From a virus (lineage: Duplodnaviria; Heunggongvirae; Uroviricota; Caudoviricetes), in IMG/VR virus record IMGVR_UViG_2869924733_000002: a stretch of DNA of 23,140 bases. One strand, written 5' to 3'. A model generated the notes under the pieces. The model was not told the origin of the DNA and made no database searches. It saw only the letters and a list, made by a program, of their open reading frames with translations. A program made the translations under genes and the position numbers. Shown piece after piece: positions 3,237-23,140 of this stretch; the first letter of the stretch is position 1, and the number at the start of each line of letters is the position of its first letter.

Positions 3237-3518
3237 CTACCTTTGCCTCTTGCCGCCATTTAACCGGAAGGCGTTACCGTTCGGTTGCGCTATCCCCATG
3301 CGGTGTTGCGTTTCGGTAACAGCTTTATGCAGGTCGCCAAATTCCTCAACCTTCACGGGCGGGCGCTTCACGTTCTCCAGACACGTTTCACGGCGGCGCT
3401 TTATCCATTCCCGATCATCGTCCTCGGTGCATAACAGCATGACTTCCATCCATCGTGCGGCAGCTCTCCGGTATAGCCCTTTTGACTCCAGCTCTTCAGC
3501 TTTCCTGTCCCTTATCAT
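3237..3518 (-). CDS. PerC-family transcriptional activator
   Basis: AEELESKGLYRRAAARWMEVM...DDDREWIKRRRETC matches the PerC-family core as I recall it (GLxRRAAxRW...REWIxxRR..C). Confidence 0.75.
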   Translation of the reverse strand: MIRDRKAEELESKGLYRRAAARWMEVMLLCTEDDDREWIKRRRETCLENVKRPPVKVEEFGDLHKAVTETQHRMGIAQPNGNAFRLNGGKRQR

Positions 3519-5780: not shown

Positions 5781-7879
5781 TTATTGAGCTTCTTTTTGTG
5801 ATGCCTGTGCGACTCTGGTGAGCGATTGTGTGACCGTACTGATCGCTCTGTCATATGCTGTGCTACCTTTTGGCGTATTTGCCAGACGTAACAAGGCATT
5901 TCGTATAACAGGGCTTTCGTATGCCTTCGCTGCTCCGCCTACGGCACCAGCAGCAGGAACAACAAACGCAGCCGTTTTTAGCATCCCCGCTAATACTGCT
6001 GCGTTTATGATGCCACCACCAACTAACAATCCATAAAGCTGCTGACCATTTAAGTTTTGAACGTTCGCTTTTGCCGCGTGTCTTGTATCGTTGAGGTATT
6101 TAATAACGCCGTCCAGTTCCTTTCCATGTACGCCTTTAAAGAAAGTTGCTGATTGCTTCCTGTTCCGGTGTAACGCATTAATAAACTTCTCAACACTGAT
6201 ATTTCCAGACGGATCAGTCGCCTTATCTACAGCATTCTGAACTATGGCTGCTCGTGCGTTTTGCCTACCATTGTCATCCAGAAGCCTGTAAAGCTGAGAA
6301 CGTTCTGATGGGCTTTGGCTAAAAACGAGTTTTGTTACATCCTCAGGCGTGGCCTTGCCGCTGGCTATTGCCTTTTGAACGCGCGTTCTTCCCATCATGT
6401 CATTGAATTTAGACCATGAGCGATCAACCCTTGCCATATTAATGGCTTCGTCTGCTCCAAGATTTTTGGCTACGGCTTTTTTCATATCCGCCGTATATGC
6501 CTTGTAGATAATATCGCTGGCTTTCTGGAGCGTATCTTTATCAACAGTGTCAGATGACGCCATAAATCGCTTTCGAAGATCGGTTCTGTTTTCCCTCGCC
6601 AGACGCAGGTCATTTGGTCCGCTGGTGATATCGTCTTTAAATTGCTGCAAGACTTTTACCGCGGCTCTATCCTGAGATTTGCCCGGGCGGCTTAACACGG
6701 CAATCTGATTGTCGATAGCTTTTACCGTGTTTGAGAGATCGACAGGGGTATCCCCCATAGCGTCAATTATGCGGTTATATCGCTTTCCTGCTGCCTCAAT
6801 GAATTTTTGTTGCCCTTTAGTCGCAGATTCATAAAGCTGTTTATCAGAAATGCCACCCAGACCATCGCTAAATGTTCTGACTAAATTTTCTCGTGCTTGT
6901 TGTTGATTCAGCCGATTCTTACCGGTTCCAAAAAAAGGAACTCTTTCGCCTAATGTCTGAGCCTGACTCTGCATAAAGGTTTTATCTTTCAGCATGTCAC
7001 TGGTCATTAACGGCAGATTTCTTTCCGATGCAAAGTCGACAGCAGCCTTTGCTTCAGGCGACATATCACCACGAACAGCCCTCGAAACCGCACTCGCTGT
7101 ATTTTCCAGCCCCTTACCAATACCACCAATGCCAGCAGAAATTACCGTTTGTAACGGATCAATATCTTCTCCACCAGCAAGGCTGGTGGCTCCCTGTAGT
7201 GCTAAATCTGTAGCTGCTGATTTTCCTATAGCACCAAGCACCGTTCCAGCCCTGCCCACTGGTGTAAACGCCAACGCATTAGCAAGAAACGAAGTCAGGT
7301 CTTGCGGTGATAAACCCGGCTTGTTCAGGGCATAATCACCTGATGGCAGAGAAACGATAGTATTCCCCTTCTCATCCTGCCTTAATGTCGCCCCCATTCC
7401 CTGAAGAATCTTTTCCTGAGACGCGTCAGAGCCGAAAAGTTGAGACCATCCAGCCTTTAGGGCATCCATGCTTAGTGAGTTCAATTCTGGGGCAGAGGTG
7501 ACATTTTGCAGTCTCTCCATCTCTGGAGTCATTCGGCTTTCGCCTGTTATAGCATCGCGCATCGCAGCCCCAAGACTGGCTCCCTGTTCTGCTGAACGCT
7601 CAAGCCCCTCTCTTTGCTGAGTAGCTAACTTTGCATACCCTGACGCAAGAGAATTATCAGATGATGTATGTTGAATATTTTGAGTTGCTGATTGGGATCG
7701 GTCTATTTCATTCGTTGATGGTAGTGGATAGGCAGCATAAAAAGCCTGCTTAGCCTGCTCTACACTTTCTCCGGCTTGCGGGGCAACGACTTCATTGAAG
7801 TATTGCTCCTGAGCCTGCGCTTTTTGTTCTGGTGCTAACGCCTGATACTGTGGAGAGGCGATAACATCTTTCCATGCTT
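5781..7879 (-). pseudogene. P22 gp16-type DNA-transfer (ejection) protein; its first 7 nt (8798-8804) are separated by an IS
   Basis: Third and largest gene of the gp7/gp20/gp16-order cassette. Joining 8804..8798 to 7879..5781 gives a 701-codon frame beginning MAKAWKDVIASPQYQALAPEQKAQAQEQYF... The start overlaps the gp20-like stop (TAATG). Confidence 0.7.
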
Positions 7880-7881
7880 TA

Positions 7882-8797
7882 GGCTGTGTCCCTTAATCAT
7901 CTGAGCTATAGTAACTGTCTGTTTACACAACATATTGAACTATGGCTCGCTACGACCTTCCCGATGAGGCATGGACCATCATCAAGCCCCTGTTACCTCC
8001 TGAACCCGCCACACCACGGGCCGGACGCCCATGGGCTGAGCACCGTAAAATCATCAATGGCATGTTCTGGGTGTTATGTTCCGGTGCACCATGGCGCGAT
8101 TTACCCGAACGATATGGGTCATGGAAAACTGTTTATAACCGCTTTAACCGATGGTCAAAGTCAGGCGTGATTAATATTATTTTCAACAGGTTGCTTTCGC
8201 TACTTGATGCAAACGGCTTTATTGACTGGTCTGCCACCGCGCTGGATGGCAGTAATATCCGGGCGCTGAAATGTGCCGCCGGTGCTCAAAAAAACATCCC
8301 GATATCGACGGAGATAATGGGCCGGGTCGCTCTCGCGGCGGTTTTGGCACCAAAATCCATCTGGCAACAGACGGAAGTGGCCTCCCGTTAAATATCGTGC
8401 TAAGCCCCGGACAAGCTCATGAAAGCCAGTTCGCGCAACGACTTCTGGACGGGATTGGCGTTCAGCGTCAGAACGGCAGCATGAAACGCCGTGGACATGC
8501 GGTACTGGCTGATAAAGCGTATTCAGGGCGCGCATTGCGCAACGAGCTGAAAAATAACGGTATAAAGGCAGTAATCCCCCGAAAGTCAAATGAGAAAATG
8601 GCATCGGATGGACGTGCACAGCTTGATCGTGATGCGTACTGCAATCGTAATGTCGTTGAACGGTGCTTTGGGCGGCTGAAAGAATATCGCCGCATCGCCA
8701 CGCGTTACGACAAAACGGCGAGAAATTACCTGGCGATGGTGAAACTGGGCTGCATCCGACTCTTTTATCAACGCTTACGTAATTAAGGGACACAGCC
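7882..8797 (+). mobile_element. IS5-family (IS427-group-like) insertion sequence, 916 bp
   Basis: Perfect terminal inverted repeats GGCTGTGTCCCTTAAT (7882-7897 and 8782-8797). TA duplication at 7880-7881 and 8798-8799. Confidence 0.9.
7942..8786 (+). CDS. IS5-family DDE transposase made from two frames by a -1 frameshift at an A7 run
   Basis: OrfA (7942-8391) and OrfB (8271-8786) overlap. A7 lies at 8288-8294. A -1 slip gives ...GAQKKHPDIDGDNGPGRSRGGFGTKIHLATDG... Confidence 0.85.
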
Positions 8798-8803
8798 TAG
8801 CCA

Positions 8804-9887
8804 TTAATCACCCCATAGTGAAGAAAAGTTACTGCTGGCTGCTGGCTGTGATACCTGCTCAGATTGCGGCAATGTCTGCGACGAAGAAGAAGTTCCTCTG
8901 TCAACTGCTGAAATAACCCGCAAAGCATCATAAGCTCGACCAGAAGCAGCTTTCAGCGAATTGAACTGGTTTTCCATCTTCCGGCGCTTGGTATCAATGG
9001 TTTTTGTGGAGTCGCCAGGCTGAGGGAAATACATTTGATAATATTTTGACATTTCAGCAGGTGCGATAGCTGCCCCTGTTTCCTGACGGAGTATTGCCAT
9101 TATTGCGTCATTAGCATTAACAACGTATTGCTGCTCTGTTGGGCTGAGCGTTAAGTTAGCCAGCGTCCCATTACCCAAAGCATTATTAATGATCGCCACT
9201 CGCTGTGGGCTAAGCTGGTCTTTCAGTGTATCTATTGAATCAAGAGCATCCCTAACCCTGTATGCAAATCCAGCAGCTTTTTTAGCCCCTTCTGGCGACT
9301 TTTCCATGATCTTTTGGGCTGTTGGCAAAGCTATTGGACGAAACCCATCTCCAGATATTGGCTGGTTTAGTTTTCCCTGCTCTTCACTTCCGTCTGTGTA
9401 GTATTTTGTGACAGTGCCATCATCGTTTTCTCTAACACTCATTAATTTTTTGGCGTTTGTATTAATTCCAGCCGCTGCCGCAAATGCCGCCGCCCCCTCT
9501 GGATCCGCCTTTAACATTTGAGCGTACTGATTGTAATTCTGCATTGCTGCTGTTGGTGCATATGCTGACGTTAACGCATTTGCTCGGCTAATATCCTGCC
9601 CTCTCGCCTGAAGTGCTTCGCCAGCCTGATTGCTGCGGATTGTCTCTGCCAACTTGCCACGCTCAATATCCCGACCTTCCATTTGATCTTTGATATCGAA
9701 ATACTTCTCATGACCGAGAGAAAACAGTGCCATACTACCAGCAAGCCGCTGGAATCCCTGTGGATCATTAACATGCATTTCGGCAACAGACTCAGGAGAA
9801 ATTCCCAAGCGACGCATTTCATCTTCGTTATCTGCTATGAATTTTCCAAATGCCCCAGTTCCGAGCGAAGATGCGATTTGAGCACTA
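8804..9887 (-). pseudogene. P22 gp20-type DNA-transfer protein, 3' portion (split by IS630)
   Basis: Continues in frame from 11041-11380 once IS630 and one TA are removed (...HLATSAQIASSLGTGAFGKF...). The restored gene is 473 aa. I recall P22 gp20 as about 471 aa. Confidence 0.7.
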
Positions 9888-11040
9888 AATAGCTGCGCTT
9901 AATACCGCTACACTTTTGCCAGTCCATGTTTGCCTCCGGGGAATGGGCTGACGGTTTCCATAAAATGGCGAACTTTTTTCAACAGTTGCCACATTGAGCG
10001 GCACTGATGATTACGCGTTATTGTGTCGTGAAGTGCCTGCCATAGCCGTTCAACATGATTCACCCATGGCGAGTAAACCGGCTGATAAATGACCCTGAAC
10101 TTCGGGTTCTCCTTCAGCCAGCTCTGTGTTTCCCGGCTTTTGTGGATAATGTAGTTGTCCACGATCAGCGTGATGGTTTTCGCCCGACGGTATGTCGCTT
10201 TAAGCCGCTTCAGCAGGCTGATGAACAGCGCCGAACTTTTGCTGTTGCCGCCCACATAGCTGACTTTACCTGTCCCGCTGTGCAGCGCTCCGGCCAGATA
10301 ATATTTTTCATTCTGTCCCGGCGTGACCACCCGTTTTTGCTGTCCGCGCAGTTGCCAGTCCGCACCGATTTTGGGATGAAGATGGATATCCACTTCATCT
10401 TCATAAAAGACCGGATGCTCTGCGCTGCATTCGTCCAGTGCTTTATGGATTGCTGCCATCTTTTCATCTTTATGCGGGTCACGGATACGCAGAGTTGGCG
10501 CAGCCCTTCGCCACACAATCCCCGCAGACGGCAACCAGCGGCGAACGGTTCCGGCATTTAACTGGCAACCGGTTATCTCATTGATTTTTATTGCCAGCAG
10601 TTCTGTACTCCAGCGTGAACGCTGGTAGCCAAAGTCGCCGGGAGAATGTTTTACCAGCTCACGTAACAGTGTGCAGATATGCTCAAACGGCCAGCGACGG
10701 GCACGCCCGGCAGGTAATGATTTCAGTCCCTCAACACCCGACTGCGTGAACCAGTTAATCCAGCGTCCAACAGAGGAACGGGCGCAGCAGAGCGTTCTGG
10801 CAACGTCGCTGACACGGTCGCCCCGGTGCAGCATCAGCATGGCAGTCAGTCTGCGGGCATAATTTTTATCGTGTGTTTTATGGATGGCTTTCTGCATCAG
10901 GCGTCGTTCGTCACGGGAAATTGGTGCTATGATCGGCATTGCTCAGTCCGGTTGGTGATTTGTTTTGATTTGGCGATTGATCAGATCGCACAATCCGGGC
11001 TAAGTTCCCTCAAAATGATCTACTATTCCGCGCAGCTATT
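9888..11040 (-). mobile_element. IS630, 1153 bp
   Basis: Imperfect terminal IRs beginning AATAGCTGCGC at both ends. TA duplication at 9886-9887 and 11041-11042, which restores a CTAG target. The 1153-bp length matches my recollection of IS630. Confidence 0.9.
9908..10939 (-). CDS. IS630 transposase (343 aa)
   Basis: Full-length ORF MPIIAPISRDERRLMQKAIHKTHDKNYARRL... recognised as the IS630 (Tc1/mariner-like DDE) transposase. Confidence 0.95.
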   Translation of the reverse strand: MPIIAPISRDERRLMQKAIHKTHDKNYARRLTAMLMLHRGDRVSDVARTLCCARSSVGRWINWFTQSGVEGLKSLPAGRARRWPFEHICTLLRELVKHSPGDFGYQRSRWSTELLAIKINEITGCQLNAGTVRRWLPSAGIVWRRAAPTLRIRDPHKDEKMAAIHKALDECSAEHPVFYEDEVDIHLHPKIGADWQLRGQQKRVVTPGQNEKYYLAGALHSGTGKVSYVGGNSKSSALFISLLKRLKATYRRAKTITLIVDNYIIHKSRETQSWLKENPKFRVIYQPVYSPWVNHVERLWQALHDTITRNHQCRSMWQLLKKVRHFMETVSPFPGGKHGLAKV

Positions 11041-11380
11041 TAGTCGCAAGATGACCAATAGAATTTCTCTGGTCGTCATCAATAAAGCCCATCCCTTTCT
11101 GAACGCTTTCAAATTCTTCTGGATACTCAGAAATAAGACTGCGCATTTTGTTTCTGTCTCCAGACTCAAAAGCCCCGGCATATGCTTTCTGAAACTCTGC
11201 TTTACGCTGTTGTTGACGTGCCTGCTGATTAATCTCAGCAACGCCTCTTAGCCCCTGTAGCGCCATTAAACCTACGTTTGGGTGCTGCTGATACTGCACA
11301 GGCTGAGGAACGGAAGAACGAGGAGCATTATCATTTTGCGGTGCCATGCTAGGCAGCCCGCCAAGTTGCCATGTCGCCAT
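11041..11380 (-). pseudogene. P22 gp20-type DNA-transfer protein, 5' portion
   Basis: The start overlaps the gp7-like stop (TAATG). The apparent stop at 11036-11038 lies inside the IS630 end. Confidence 0.7.
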
Positions 11381-12057
11381 TAGAATCCAAGCCCCCCAAC
11401 AAGACCAATAAGCCCACCACCAATAGCCCCGGCGACATTACCTATACCCGGAACAACGGAACCAAGTTGCGCACCCGCTAAAGCGCCTGATGCCGCCCCA
11501 CCAATACCACGCGCAAGACTGGATGGCTGCTGCGCCTGACCTGCACGAATAGCGCCAAGCCCCTGCAAGAGTTGCCCGGTATTATTGGCGTAGTTTTGCC
11601 CTGCTGTTGCCTGCCCTGATGCCGCATTCATCCCGACATTTAGCAGGTTTCCATAATTTTGCATTTGCCCACTGAGCCAATTGTTATAAAGCATGGGCGC
11701 AATGGAAGATAACTGGTTACTGGTAGCTGTTGAGCCAAGCCCCCCGGTAGCTTCTGCTGAGACAAGGTTCTGATAACGGGCCTGATCTGCCTGTGTTTTA
11801 TATAAACCAGAACCAAAGAAATCATTCGCGGCTTTATTCTGCCCTTCCAGAGTCATCAGTCCTTGCAGTTGTTGTAAAGCAGGCAATCCGACTTCTGCAT
11901 ACGGCTTGAGATTATTCATCACCGTATTCCACTGCTCGCGCTGCAAATCAATTGCCTGCTGCTGGGCCTTCGCCTGAGCTTTAGAGGCACCACCATCACC
12001 GCCTTTTTCGTATACGGCACGATTGAGATGTTTATGAGCTATATGGGTAATTAACAT
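11380..12057 (-). CDS. P22 gp7-type DNA-transfer (ejection) protein, 225 aa
   Basis: Size and position match gp7 (about 229 aa as recalled). It has a Gln/Asn-rich body and a Gly-rich hydrophobic tail, and is translationally coupled on both sides. Confidence 0.7.
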   Translation of the reverse strand: MLITHIAHKHLNRAVYEKGGDGGASKAQAKAQQQAIDLQREQWNTVMNNLKPYAEVGLPALQQLQGLMTLEGQNKAANDFFGSGLYKTQADQARYQNLVSAEATGGLGSTATSNQLSSIAPMLYNNWLSGQMQNYGNLLNVGMNAASGQATAGQNYANNTGQLLQGLGAIRAGQAQQPSSLARGIGGAASGALAGAQLGSVVPGIGNVAGAIGGGLIGLVGGLGF

Positions 12058-12512
12058 TCGCTGAATTCCTTATATTGTTGCCGAGTTAACTGATAAAGCG
12101 TTACGCCGACGGGTTTACCACATCTGATATAAGCATCATCAAGGTGACCAACACGGGTAGCGCCAAGCAAACGGATAATTGCCCGTCCATATTTCGTGGT
12201 GTCAGGAACCATAGTGATGCTGTTAAGGAATGGTGAGTTTTCGAGAAGCCATTTGCAGAATAATCGATGCCCTTGCAGTGCATATTCACCACGGAATCCG
12301 GGGTCGTACACCGCATGGCATTCAACAACGCTATGCCAGAAGTTACGCACTTCATGAACGCCAGCCAGCACTAATCCTTCGTAGATGCCGAGATATACCG
12401 CATCAGGCTTGATGTAGTACGTGTGCCCCGGCTCAACAATATTTTCGGTATTGCCTGGCTCGTTAAGAAAGGCCTGTAATCGCACAGGGTTATCAATAAA
12501 TTTTAGTTCCAT
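12051..12512 (-). CDS. gp14-position protein (DUF2824/GNAT-fold-like), 153 aa
   Basis: Sits directly upstream of the gp7-like gene, as gene 14 does in P22-like phages. YDPGFRGEYALQGHRLFCKWLL resembles a degenerate GNAT motif A. The family name is from memory. Confidence 0.55.
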   Translation of the reverse strand: MELKFIDNPVRLQAFLNEPGNTENIVEPGHTYYIKPDAVYLGIYEGLVLAGVHEVRNFWHSVVECHAVYDPGFRGEYALQGHRLFCKWLLENSPFLNSITMVPDTTKYGRAIIRLLGATRVGHLDDAYIRCGKPVGVTLYQLTRQQYKEFSEC

Positions 12513-12528
12513 GCGATGCCATCCATTT

Positions 12529-12690
12529 TCACATACAGCCTGCCAGCGCCTTATCTATTAACCCTCGTGCAATTTCATGCAGAGTTGGCGCTACTCCAAT
12601 TCCTGATTTTTTACGCTGCTCTTCCTGAATTTTCTTTATCGCTTCCATTTGCTTCTCACTTATCAATACCGGCTTTACTGAAATAGCCAT
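12529..12690 (-). CDS. Ribbon-helix-helix (Arc/Mnt-like) protein, 53 aa (below the ORF-track cutoff)
   Basis: My own translation gives MAISVKPVLISEKQMEAIKKIQEEQRKKSGIGVAPTLHEIARGLIDKALAGCM. The pattern is beta strand, helix, G-x-x, helix. RBS AAGGGGG lies 5 nt before the ATG. Confidence 0.55.
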   Translation of the reverse strand: MAISVKPVLISEKQMEAIKKIQEEQRKKSGIGVAPTLHEIARGLIDKALAGCM

Positions 12691-12702
12691 AACGCCCCCT
12701 TA

Positions 12703-12729
12703 TAACTGTATAAAACAACAGTTATTATA
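12703..12729 (-). promoter_or_regulatory. LexA (SOS) box overlapping a perfect TATAAT -10
   Basis: TAACTGTATAAAACAACAGTTA at 12703-12724 is CTGT-N8-ACAG with 7-bp palindromic arms. TATAAT (minus strand, 12729-12724) abuts it, about 34 nt upstream of the RHH start. Confidence 0.6.
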
Positions 12730-12784
12730 GTTTCACAAATCGCAATATTCATCATCGTAATTGCAGAATATGAAACAAATAGCA

Positions 12785-12816
12785 CAAAAAAATGCCACCG
12801 CTCAGTAGCTGGTGGC
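12785..12816 (-). terminator. Rho-independent terminator (minus strand)
   Basis: GCCACC-N11-GGTGGC followed by A+T7 on the minus strand. It lies between the primase/ori region and the SOS promoter. Confidence 0.5.
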
Positions 12817-13011
12817 GTCGTTCTGTGTGTCAGGTTTTGACAGGTTTTTTATGGACTCTAAAAACTATATTTATGGTGTCGCATTACTCTTCACGGCAGG
12901 CGCTTTTCAGTTCTGCCCTTGCTTCTGGCTCCATTGGTAATTTGATTCGCGATCAGCTATGCGGATGGTTTGCTGAACAGGCATAACAACTTCTCAGAGG
13001 CTGTTTTTTGA

Positions 13012-13086
13012 ACTACGAAAATTTCGTAGTGCTCACTTTCAAAAACGTCACGCCCTTGTACACAGGATTTTACGAAAGTCTCGTAA
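13012..13086. promoter_or_regulatory. Two operator-like palindromes sharing a TACGAAA half-site
   Basis: ACTACGAAA-a-TTTCGTAGT at 13012-13030 and TTTACGA-aagtc-TCGTAAA at 13068-13086. Confidence 0.3.
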
Positions 13087-13136
13087 AACACTCTCTGATG
13101 CCAGCCAGGTGTTGTGCGCATCAATTCAGTCACATT

Positions 13137-13256
13137 GTGTTGGTTCAAAATACCGTGTTGTTGGTTCAGTGTTGGTTCAATAAAAAGAATAAAATCCTTA
13201 TAAAACAATACCATTTACAAATTGAACCAACTGAACCAACTGAACCAACACCTTTT
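13137..13256. repeat. Iteron/origin-like block R, immediately 3' of the primase-helicase gene
   Basis: TGAACCAAC x3 in tandem at 13223-13249, an AT-rich spacer, then three GTTGGTTCA-type repeats at 13137-13180. This is the mirror image of block L. Confidence 0.8.
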
Positions 13257-20786: not shown

Positions 20787-20857
20787 GCGGATAAAAATAA
20801 AATATTTTTTTGAGAAGATTATCCGCTTTGAAATACACAGTAGCGTATTCAAAGCGG
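20787..20857 (-). terminator. Two overlapping hairpins between the 293-aa gene and alpA (terminator or attenuator-like)
   Basis: CCGCTTTGAA(A)TAC / GTATTCAAAGCGG at 20823-20857 and GCGGATAA / TTATCCGC at 20787-20826 share the CCGC/GCGG segment. There is no clean U-tract. Confidence 0.3.
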
Positions 20858-21783: not shown

Positions 21784-21925
21784 ACGCCACCCCGCGCCCC
21801 TAATTCTGACGGCTATGCCAGCCCGTAGGGGTGTACGGGTTTTCGGGGATCAGCCTAGACATAGCCTATTCTTTGTTCGTCTACATAAGTCTACTACCAT
21901 TGCTTAACACGGTCTATTCATACAG

Positions 21926-23140
21926 TTAAGCTCGTTTCCCAAACGAACCATGAACAACGTTCTCCTCCTTCTCCAGCGCATCCATATAGTCGGCATACCA
22001 TTGAAGCATCTCCCGCCTTCCATCCAGATATTGCGCATGGTTGTATGTGCCACGAATTGAGTTCTTATCAACGTGAGCGAGCTGCGTTTCTATCCACGCG
22101 GTGTTATAGCCCTGCTCATGCAAAATCGTGCTCATAGTGTGCCGGAACCCATGACCAGTTACACGTCCAGCGTAGCCAATGCGCTTAAACACTTGGTTTA
22201 TGCTGGCCTCACTCATTGTTTTCCTTGGATCATTGCGCCCGGGAAACATAAGAGGGTAATTGCCTGTTATTTCTCTAATCTTCCCAATAAGCGAAAGAGC
22301 CTGATCAGACAATGGCACAATATGAGGCCGCCGCATTTTCATACGTGAAGCGGGTATCTCCCAGATAGCCTTGTTGAAATCAATTTCATCCCATAATGCG
22401 CCACGTAGTTCGCCAGTCCGCAAGCCGGTGATAATCAGTAGACGAGCCGCCATAACAACCAATGCGCTTCCTGAGTAACTGGACAATGCCTTGAAAAAAT
22501 CAGGTAATTCTTTAGCTGTAAGGAAAGGGTAATGATTAGATTCATGGCCTTGCATCGCGCTAGTAAGGTCTGGTGCAGGGTTATACTCTGCGCGACCAGT
22601 GACTATTGCATAGCGGAAAACTTCCCCGCACCGCTGCCTCACTTTTTTGGCTTTTTCTGTAGCACCGCGCCCCTCGATGCGCCGCAGCACATTCAGAAGT
22701 TCAAGTGGTTTGATTTCGGCGATTGGTTTTTTGCCAATGTAAGGGAACACATCTTTGTTGAAGGCTTCGAGGATGTCTGAAGCATAACCAGCAGACCATT
22801 TTTTTAATTTGCTGCTGTGCCACTCAAGGGCAATATCTTTGAAGGTGTTGTTTAACTGCGTTTCCCGGGCAATCTTTTCCTCTCGTTTCGCTTCCATCGG
22901 ATCGATACCACCAGCGATACCTCTTTTCGCATCTTCACGTTTTGCCCGAGCATCGGCTAGAGTAACCTCAGGATACACACCTAGTGCCAATAGCTTCTCT
23001 TTACCAGCTACACGATATTTAAGTCGCCAGTATTTACCTCCATTAGGTTTTACCAAGAGATACAAACCGCCACCATCGGCCAGCTTGTAAGCCTTCTCTT
23101 TTGGCTTGGCTGTGTCTATTTGACGGGCATTGAGTTTCAC
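21926..23140 (-). CDS. int: P4-type tyrosine integrase (DUF4102 N-terminal domain); start at or beyond the window edge
   Basis: N-terminal ...AKPKEKAYKLADGGGLYLLVKPNGGKYWRLKYRVAGKEKLLALGVYPEVTLADAR. C-terminal HGFRHTMSTILHEQGYN..WIETQLAH..........Y catalytic region. Confidence 0.9.
   Translation of the reverse strand: MKLNARQIDTAKPKEKAYKLADGGGLYLLVKPNGGKYWRLKYRVAGKEKLLALGVYPEVTLADARAKREDAKRGIAGGIDPMEAKREEKIARETQLNNTFKDIALEWHSSKLKKWSAGYASDILEAFNKDVFPYIGKKPIAEIKPLELLNVLRRIEGRGATEKAKKVRQRCGEVFRYAIVTGRAEYNPAPDLTSAMQGHESNHYPFLTAKELPDFFKALSSYSGSALVVMAARLLIITGLRTGELRGALWDEIDFNKAIWEIPASRMKMRRPHIVPLSDQALSLIGKIREITGNYPLMFPGRNDPRKTMSEASINQVFKRIGYAGRVTGHGFRHTMSTILHEQGYNTAWIETQLAHVDKNSIRGTYNHAQYLDGRREMLQWYADYMDALEKEENVVHGSFGKRA

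Follow-up and report, generated by a model that had tools for sequence, protein, structure and literature searches.

Does a phage satellite place its own virion-protein genes under the SOS repressor of its host? The question is raised by a stretch of 23,140 nt from IMG/VR record IMGVR_UViG_2869924733_000002 (the window, to which all positions refer), whose minus strand carries, between 12529 and 12816, a terminator, a promoter with a LexA-type box and a gene for a 53-amino-acid (aa) protein of predicted ribbon-helix-helix (RHH) fold, followed by homologues of the phage P22 genes 14, 7, 20 and 16. We read this region as the promoter of the DNA-injection module of a phage-inducible chromosomal island (PICI) of the EcCIMP1 family, autoregulated by the RHH protein and under LexA control in particular lineages, and give this reading a probability of about 0.6. 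It builds on sequence anatomy, operator score, RHH fold, identity to EcCIMP1, distribution among lineages and constraint on the core of the box, all computed directly here.

The promoter and its LexA-type box

Read in the direction of transcription, the region starts with the terminator that ends the primase operon (Table 1). This is a convincing intrinsic terminator: its hairpin has a folding free energy of -18.4 kcal/mol (z -4.5), none of 200 shuffled sequences was equally stable, and a terminator lies at the same place in most homologous loci. An AT-rich stretch leads from the hairpin to a perfect -10 hexamer. TATAAT, a CTGT-N8-ACAG palindrome, a ribosome-binding site, ATG and the 53-aa open reading frame (ORF) then follow one another exactly as quoted in a preliminary description of this DNA, and the terminator which that description placed ahead of the promoter is real as well. 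The palindrome has its halves at 12721-12718 (CTGT) and 12709-12706 (ACAG), and its symmetry reaches ATAACTGT/ACAGTTAT. Since it directly follows the perfect -10, it should cover the transcription start. The -35 is weak, which is why a consensus scan of the region called no promoter.

Such a palindrome might have arisen in AT-rich promoter DNA by chance alone. The window contains a single copy of the bare core CTGT-N8-ACAG, and 25 of 100 shuffles contained it at least once; because a quarter of shuffles reach its count, the core alone is weak evidence. The whole 20-mer was scored with a LexA matrix built from 18 published E. coli sites (Table 4 of PMC3009722), expressed as a heterology index (HI) of the Berg-von Hippel/Lewis type; this matrix differs from the original one of Lewis 1994. 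With an HI of 5.14, AACTGTTGTTTTATACAGTT is the best 20-mer in the window (runner-up 8.0), which upholds the LexA likeness proposed in the preliminary description. The value falls in the range of the recA, lexA, sulA and yebG operators (5.2-7.4) and well within the full range of bound sites, 0.6-12.8 when the 18 sites are scored by leave-one-out. The exact probability of an HI of 5.14 or lower is 2e-8 per position and strand, which corresponds to an expectation of only 0.001-0.004 sites of this quality per window. In a positive control, a matrix freed of dinD and applied to an 18.4-kb related locus (L004) found HI<=9 only at this box and at the genuine dinD operator, which lies 63 nt upstream of that gene. 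LexA-binding sequences of K-12 have a low-HI mode of about 7.3 and SOS-independent prophages lie at about 17.9 (PMC12527982), values that are merely indicative here because the matrices differ. The chance explanation, already disfavoured by this rarity, becomes extremely improbable in view of the precise position of the box at the predicted +1 and its conservation with variable spacers across sub-lineages.

The box also resembles individual chromosomal SOS operators. It shares the AACTGT...ACAGTT ends with dinD and a T-rich left spacer with uvrB, and the HI range of dinD, yebG and uvrB is the same. It differs from them in being located on a satellite and in its spacer TGTTTTAT, absent from the 18 reference sites. 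LexA would very probably bind it in vitro.

Two further LexA-like sites were considered and set aside. The second-best site in the window, CCCTGTATGCAAATCCAGCA (9256-9275, HI 8.0), lies within the gp20 coding sequence and is kept only in near-identical copies; it is probably due to chance, because it is lost in homologues of 72% identity. A weak site between the integrase and DUF6387 genes, CACGGTCTATTCATACAGTT (21908-21927, HI 9.9), is unlikely to be functional because one of its halves is without CTG.

Table 1. Features of the promoter region and of the injection module in the window.
Feature	Position	Strand	Basis or remark
Intrinsic terminator ending the primase operon	12786..12816	-	Stem 12794-12816 (GCCACC...GGUGGC), then A-U7; GC-rich hairpin
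R1, distal inverted repeat TTTCATATTCTGCAA, candidate RHH operator	12761..12775	-	Exact match to family motif TTTCA-N5-TG[AC]AA
Weak -35-like hexamer ATGAAT	12747..12752	-	3/6 matches, 17-nt spacer
R2, proximal inverted repeat TTGCGATTTGTGAAA, candidate RHH operator	12731..12745	-	30 nt from R1; abuts -10, fills -35/-10 spacer
Perfect -10 hexamer TATAAT	12724..12729	-	Read from the sequence; nearly invariant family-wide
LexA-type SOS box AACTGTTGTTTTATACAGTT, 20-mer	12704..12723	-	Predicted to cover the transcription start
Shine-Dalgarno AAGGGGG	12695..12701	-	4 nt ahead of ATG
53-aa ORF, WP_001018524.1	12529..12690 (ATG at 12690)	-	Orphan family with predicted RHH fold; probable autoregulator
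P22 gp14 homologue (DUF2824)	12051..12512	-	Pfam E 1.5e-61; ~91% nucleotide identity to Kapi1 gene
P22 gp7 ejection protein homologue	11380..12057	-	Pfam P22_gp7, E 1.9e-72
P22 gp20 ejection protein, N-terminal part, cut by insertion sequence	11036..11380	-	Pfam Inj_translocase positions 38-118
IS630-family transposase (DDE_3 + HTH) inserted in gp20	9908..10939	-	Pfam domains
gp20, C-terminal part	8804..9817	-	Pfam Inj_translocase positions 141-217
Second insertion sequence, DDE_Tnp_1 transposase ORFs	7886-8786		Between gp20 and gp16-like gene
gp16-like injection protein, 593-aa ORF	5781..7562	-	Genes annotated 'injection protein' in L001 and L003 are 98-99% identical

Distribution and constraint of the box

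For comparison we assembled 148 loci in which 130 nt or more precede the ORF, comprising 82 distinct promoter sequences, from genomes of at least 12 Enterobacterales genera, from IMG/VR and from metagenomes. The small ORF heads the module across these related loci, in agreement with the place given to it in the preliminary description. Conserved throughout the family are the upstream terminator, two inverted repeats, TATAAT and a CTGTAT just past the -10. What follows CTGTAT falls into classes. Promoters of LexA geometry, CTGT-N8-ACAG, have HI 5.1-8.6 and four spacers (TGTTTTAT, ATCGTTAT, ATAAAATA, ATAAATAA). A larger class, 40 of 88 distinct promoters, contains CTGTATAAATATCAGG, in which the arrangement is CTG-N9-CAG, CAG is merged with the Shine-Dalgarno sequence and HI amounts to 12.7-17. 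A few lineages have decayed boxes.

The N9 element does not fit LexA because of its spacing. Nevertheless, its layout, TATAAT-nn-CTGTATAAATATCAGG(A/G)GG (for example L009:7950-7990), is as conserved as the -10, and something besides LexA must therefore constrain CTGTAT in these promoters. With its perfect LexA left half-site the element may be a relic, the site of another protein or a constraint of the leader.

Comparison of box geometry with the genes behind the promoter revealed an association. LexA geometry was found in 20 of the 21 distinct promoters that precede P22-type ejection genes and in three of nine preceding tape-measure genes, while it is missing from those in front of T7-like internal virion proteins (0/17), p605 cargo (0/12) and baseplate hub cargo (0/7). 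On a weakly resolved tree of the small protein, LexA-spaced boxes appear in at least three places. Lineages that retain the geometry are the Escherichia-type clade and two more; in most of the others it has been replaced by N9 or lost.

Constraint on the box was measured in the Escherichia-type clade, delimited by protein sequence alone (32 distinct promoters from 55 loci). Only two of the eight CTGT/ACAG columns are variable there, compared with 73 of 102 among the remaining non-coding columns (P=0.012); five of the eight spacer positions vary and none of the six in the -10. Both changes in the core belong to a single lineage, L006/L107, in which T7-type cargo has replaced the P22 type. A previous version of the test, run on promoters selected by a CTG...CAG regular expression (P=4e-7), was circular and was discarded.

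The first gene product and its candidate operators

In the AlphaFold model of the 53-aa protein (pLDDT, the predicted local distance difference test, 77) an extended N-terminus is followed by two helices, and structure comparison recognised the strand-helix-helix topology over about 45 residues. The RHH fold of the product is thus supported at the level of a model. The beta-alpha-alpha layout named in the preliminary description therefore stands as a fold, whereas assignment to a curated RHH family by sequence does not: searches of Pfam, PHROG, PADLOC and PDB sequences gave no match for this protein, 15 members and 10 distant representatives of its family had none in Pfam even at E<=10, and hhalign against Arc returned a probability of 0.3%. 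Foldseek with the model found nothing significant. The family is tiny, an exhaustive HMMER search of 1.84 billion proteins yielding 55 representatives at 50% identity.

Parallels are offered by Arc and Mnt, the immI RHH repressors of P22. They too are small RHH proteins of about 53 aa in a P22-type context near the gp14-7-20-16 genes, acting on a promoter with overlapping operators. The satellite protein differs in that its sequence relationship to them is undetectable, its gene lies upstream of gp14 and not downstream of gp16, and it has no homologue in any phage record.

RHH repressors commonly autoregulate through palindromic operators, and this general habit raises the possibility that the palindrome past the -10 is mainly the operator of an island regulator, the RHH protein or another, its LexA likeness being a by-product without physiological role. 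Preservation of CTGTAT throughout the family, including the 40 distinct N9 promoters unfit for LexA, does reveal a constraint independent of LexA. Yet the 20-mer agrees with LexA preferences outside CTG and CAG too: CTG is followed by T and CAG preceded by A, the 8-nt spacer is AT-rich and the spacing is 10 nt (p 2e-8). In N10 variants the spacer changes while exactly the bases critical for LexA are kept. A further observation comes from four loci (L012, L062, L063 and L147; class D), in which the RHH gene stands third in an unrelated operon, one that also contains an HExxH peptidase-like gene. The promoter of this operon has retained the repeat pair R1/R2, 30 nt apart, and is without the CTGTAT element, which argues for R1/R2 and not the palindrome as the RHH operator. 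We regard the by-product explanation as unlikely.

R1 and R2 are copies of TTTCA-N5-TG[AC]AA, and the pair, with its 30-nt spacing and the proximal copy abutting the -10, is conserved family-wide, R1 in 88 distinct promoters. Because the repeats travel with the RHH gene, class D loci included, they are most likely the operators of the RHH protein, as judged from their sequence and distribution. Their arm centres lie 10 bp apart, and such spacing is expected for an RHH dimer of dimers. R1/R2 as sites for AlpA, the master regulator, were rejected, because the alpA promoter showed no R-like motif. An inverted repeat with 10-bp arms (20823-20857, CCGCTTTGAA...TTCAAAGCGG) lies about 120 nt upstream of alpA; it encloses TACTGT and may serve the master-regulator promoter as an operator or a terminator.

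The class D operon itself (L012:7256-9066) encodes a 183-aa ORF, a 64-aa ORF, the RHH protein, a 186-aa protein with a HEAGH motif and weak Peptidase_M50B/M41 matches, and a 114-aa putative lipoprotein. In L012, as in the other three loci, an integrase lies upstream and the primase downstream of it.

The preliminary description had compared the locus with LexA-controlled antirepressor modules of temperate phages. Such modules comprise 186 Tum, Gifsy-type antirepressors and N15 AntC, whose products bind and inactivate phage repressors. The likeness consists in a host LexA operator on a mobile element ahead of a small regulatory gene. Here, however, the first product has a predicted DNA-binding RHH fold, probable operators in its own promoter and structural genes behind it, and shows no sequence similarity to known antirepressor families; because it is of DNA-binding RHH type, the comparison does not fit.

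The satellite, its injection module and the proposed regulation

Upstream of the promoter lie genes for a TOPRIM-DUF927 primase, Ash/Icd-like proteins, AntA/AntB, an AlpA-family protein (PF05930, E 9e-20) and a tyrosine integrase; the AntA/AntB and Ash genes belong to another operon than the RHH gene. In complete genomes the element resides at tRNA-Thr (thrW), between proA and yagU, and in L001 and L152 the tRNA-Thr gene adjoins int. Some 500 of 5426 complete E. coli genomes have the island, ETEC H10407 being one of them. An element of about 20 kb at a tRNA gene, with integrase, AlpA and primase and free of capsid, terminase and lysis genes, is a PICI. More precisely, it is a close relative of EcCIMP1 of E. 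coli MP1 (PMC11773190), which has the same integration site and gene order (int, AlpA, antirepressor, Ash/Icd, DUF927 primase, small ORF, DUF2824, gp7, gp20, gp16, PerC). The two are 98.4% identical over 9.5 kb, MP1 has the identical small protein WP_001018524.1 and the identical SOS box, and the promoters show six differences in 180 nt. Gene content, locus and this identity make the cassette part of the satellite itself, and not its neighbour as the preliminary description had it; altogether that interpretation is partly supported.

EcCIMP1 is excised, circularised and transduced only with its P22-like helper vB_EcoP_Kapi1, and its alpA promoter answers to the helper and not to mitomycin C alone (PMC11773190). 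According to the same study, EcCIMP1 contributes to superinfection immunity by an unexplained mechanism and its PerC homologue represses expression of LEE, the enterocyte effacement locus. 'DNA transfer' and DUF2824 genes downstream of the primase are noted in that paper; neither 'LexA' nor 'ejection' occurs in it, and the promoter, the RHH fold and the identity of the ejection proteins are not described there. The LexA/RHH promoter is an undescribed variant of a known regulatory theme in a known satellite.

The genes behind the promoter are indeed of structural type, as the preliminary description proposed: Pfam matches and sequence identity make them homologues of P22 gp14, gp7, gp20 and gp16. 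The gp14 gene starts 16 nt past the RHH stop codon and is probably co-transcribed with the RHH gene. The Kapi1 copies of these four genes stand behind the tail-needle gene in the late operon, gp14 coming directly after it, and have neither a small ORF nor a promoter to themselves. Both the promoter and the small ORF are absent from all phage records, and inheritance of the two from a P22-like prophage is therefore excluded. Helper-embedded satellites, whose virion genes are pieces of an interrupted helper prophage (PMC10111431), were likewise rejected as a model because these islands occupy tRNA or chromosomal sites without surrounding prophage. The window copy has other gp20 and gp16 alleles than EcCIMP1, and its injection module, unlike that of MP1, is disrupted by two insertion sequences; gp20 is intact in L001, L003 and MP1.

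We propose the following course of events. The unit would be insulated from the primase operon by the terminator, and its first product, the RHH protein, would bind R1/R2 and autoregulate the operon. In Escherichia-type lineages with gp14-gp7-gp20-gp16 cargo, a canonical LexA operator covers the predicted start site, and in undamaged cells LexA would block initiation. DNA damage, which also induces the P22-like helper prophage, would lead to LexA cleavage and to transcription of the RHH gene together with gp14-gp7-gp20-gp16, after which the RHH protein would limit expression. Such physiologically meaningful SOS control of the module seems probable, though less so than LexA binding itself.

Another possibility is that LexA can bind but the box is a minor or relic input, DNA damage alone being insufficient and the helper, AlpA or RHH autoregulation governing the operon. 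The weak -35, with R2 lying over the spacer, suggests a need for another factor, EcCIMP1 excision and alpA expression depend on the helper, and many lineages have lost or shortened the box while retaining the module. Against this, conservation of the core in the Escherichia-type clade equals that of the -10, the terminator separates the unit from AlpA-driven upstream transcription, and no R-like motif was found at the alpA promoter. A merely minor role of LexA therefore appears rather improbable to us, if somewhat less so than the by-product explanation.

Several points nevertheless weigh against LexA and RHH control of a functional injection module. LexA binding and SOS induction at this promoter are predicted from sequence only, and so is the position of the start site behind a poor -35. 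In EcCIMP1, mitomycin C does not induce alpA when the helper is absent, and excision too depends on the helper; the island is therefore not run by SOS alone. Nor is LexA geometry general in the family, as the N9 promoters indicate, and its association with cargo type comes largely from one clade on a poorly resolved small-protein tree, which leaves few independent events. The RHH assignment comes from a monomer model built on a shallow alignment, for which Foldseek gave nothing significant. Finally, the window copy with its two insertion sequences may no longer be under selection.

The nearest precedent for LexA control of such a module is operon I of the staphylococcal pathogenicity islands SaPIbov1 and SaPI1 (Ubeda et al. 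2007, as cited in PMC3152322), a LexA-regulated packaging operon. In that account, too, a satellite operon for morphogenesis or transfer is placed under the host SOS repressor, apart from the helper-dependent master switch. As far as it is described there, operon I differs in having a Gram-positive LexA motif, terS and capsid-size genes instead of ejection proteins, and no RHH first gene, so that we speak of analogy, not homology; terS and capsid-remodelling genes were not found behind the promoter in the window, where gp14, gp7, gp20 and gp16 stand. Satellites are thought to sense their helper via helper proteins. With a LexA operator on its injection-protein operon, this Gram-negative PICI would possess a second input that does not depend on the helper, just as SaPI operon I does, and this input is directly addressable in the published MP1/Kapi1 system.

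Across the collected loci, cargo changes while the conserved promoter and RHH gene stay. In every lineage the genes behind them encode virion proteins ejected with DNA: P22 gp14/7/20/16, T7_gp14-like plus SLT internal virion proteins, tape-measure proteins (accompanied by a 108-aa partner), SLT 'lytic tail' proteins or a baseplate hub. Escherichia islands carry the P22-type cargo, those of Klebsiella, Leclercia and Pectobacterium T7-gp14-like plus SLT internal virion proteins, those of Pantoea, Serratia, Lonsdalea and Chimaeribacter tape-measure proteins, and those of Rahnella the baseplate hub; examples among L005-L151 are L006:8529-15988, L011:8159-11908 and L013:8153-9247, and in the window the cargo lies at 5781-12512. 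No satellite with an ejection or tape-measure module of its own was found described in the searchable literature.

A tentative and rather less likely extension is that these islands form a PICI family (int-AlpA-DUF927 primase) with a swappable injection module, matched to the type of helper virion and kept behind one RHH-autoregulated promoter. The satellite would place an ejectosome or tape measure of its own in the particles of the helper, and lineages living on SOS-inducible P22-like phages would repeatedly have become LexA-wired. This purpose of the cargo we infer from sequence comparison. If true, satellite DNA could enter cells that exclude the helper, or the module could underlie the superinfection immunity to which EcCIMP1 contributes, and it could explain how such islands enter new hosts.

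LexA-type sites are present elsewhere in the island family. In the Klebsiella-type locus L071 (about 6030-7689; also in L116 and L131), a two-gene candidate defence system, PDC-M18A/B of PADLOC, is located between the primase and the RHH promoter. Ahead of it stand two strong SOS boxes 22 nt apart, one of HI 2.4-3.5 and one of 5.7-8.1. PDC-M18A/B may be another LexA-wired accessory module.

Between primase and terminator the window also contains an 85-aa ORF (12957-13214) that is not annotated in RefSeq and has no Pfam or PADLOC match; tblastn found counterparts with 41-57% identity over 30-40 aa at the same position in islands of Cedecea, Chimaeribacter, Lonsdalea and Pantoea. At its far end the island encodes an rve-type transposase (1-819, truncated where the window ends), a pRiA4b ORF-3 family protein (2091-2633) and a PerC-family regulator (3237-3518).
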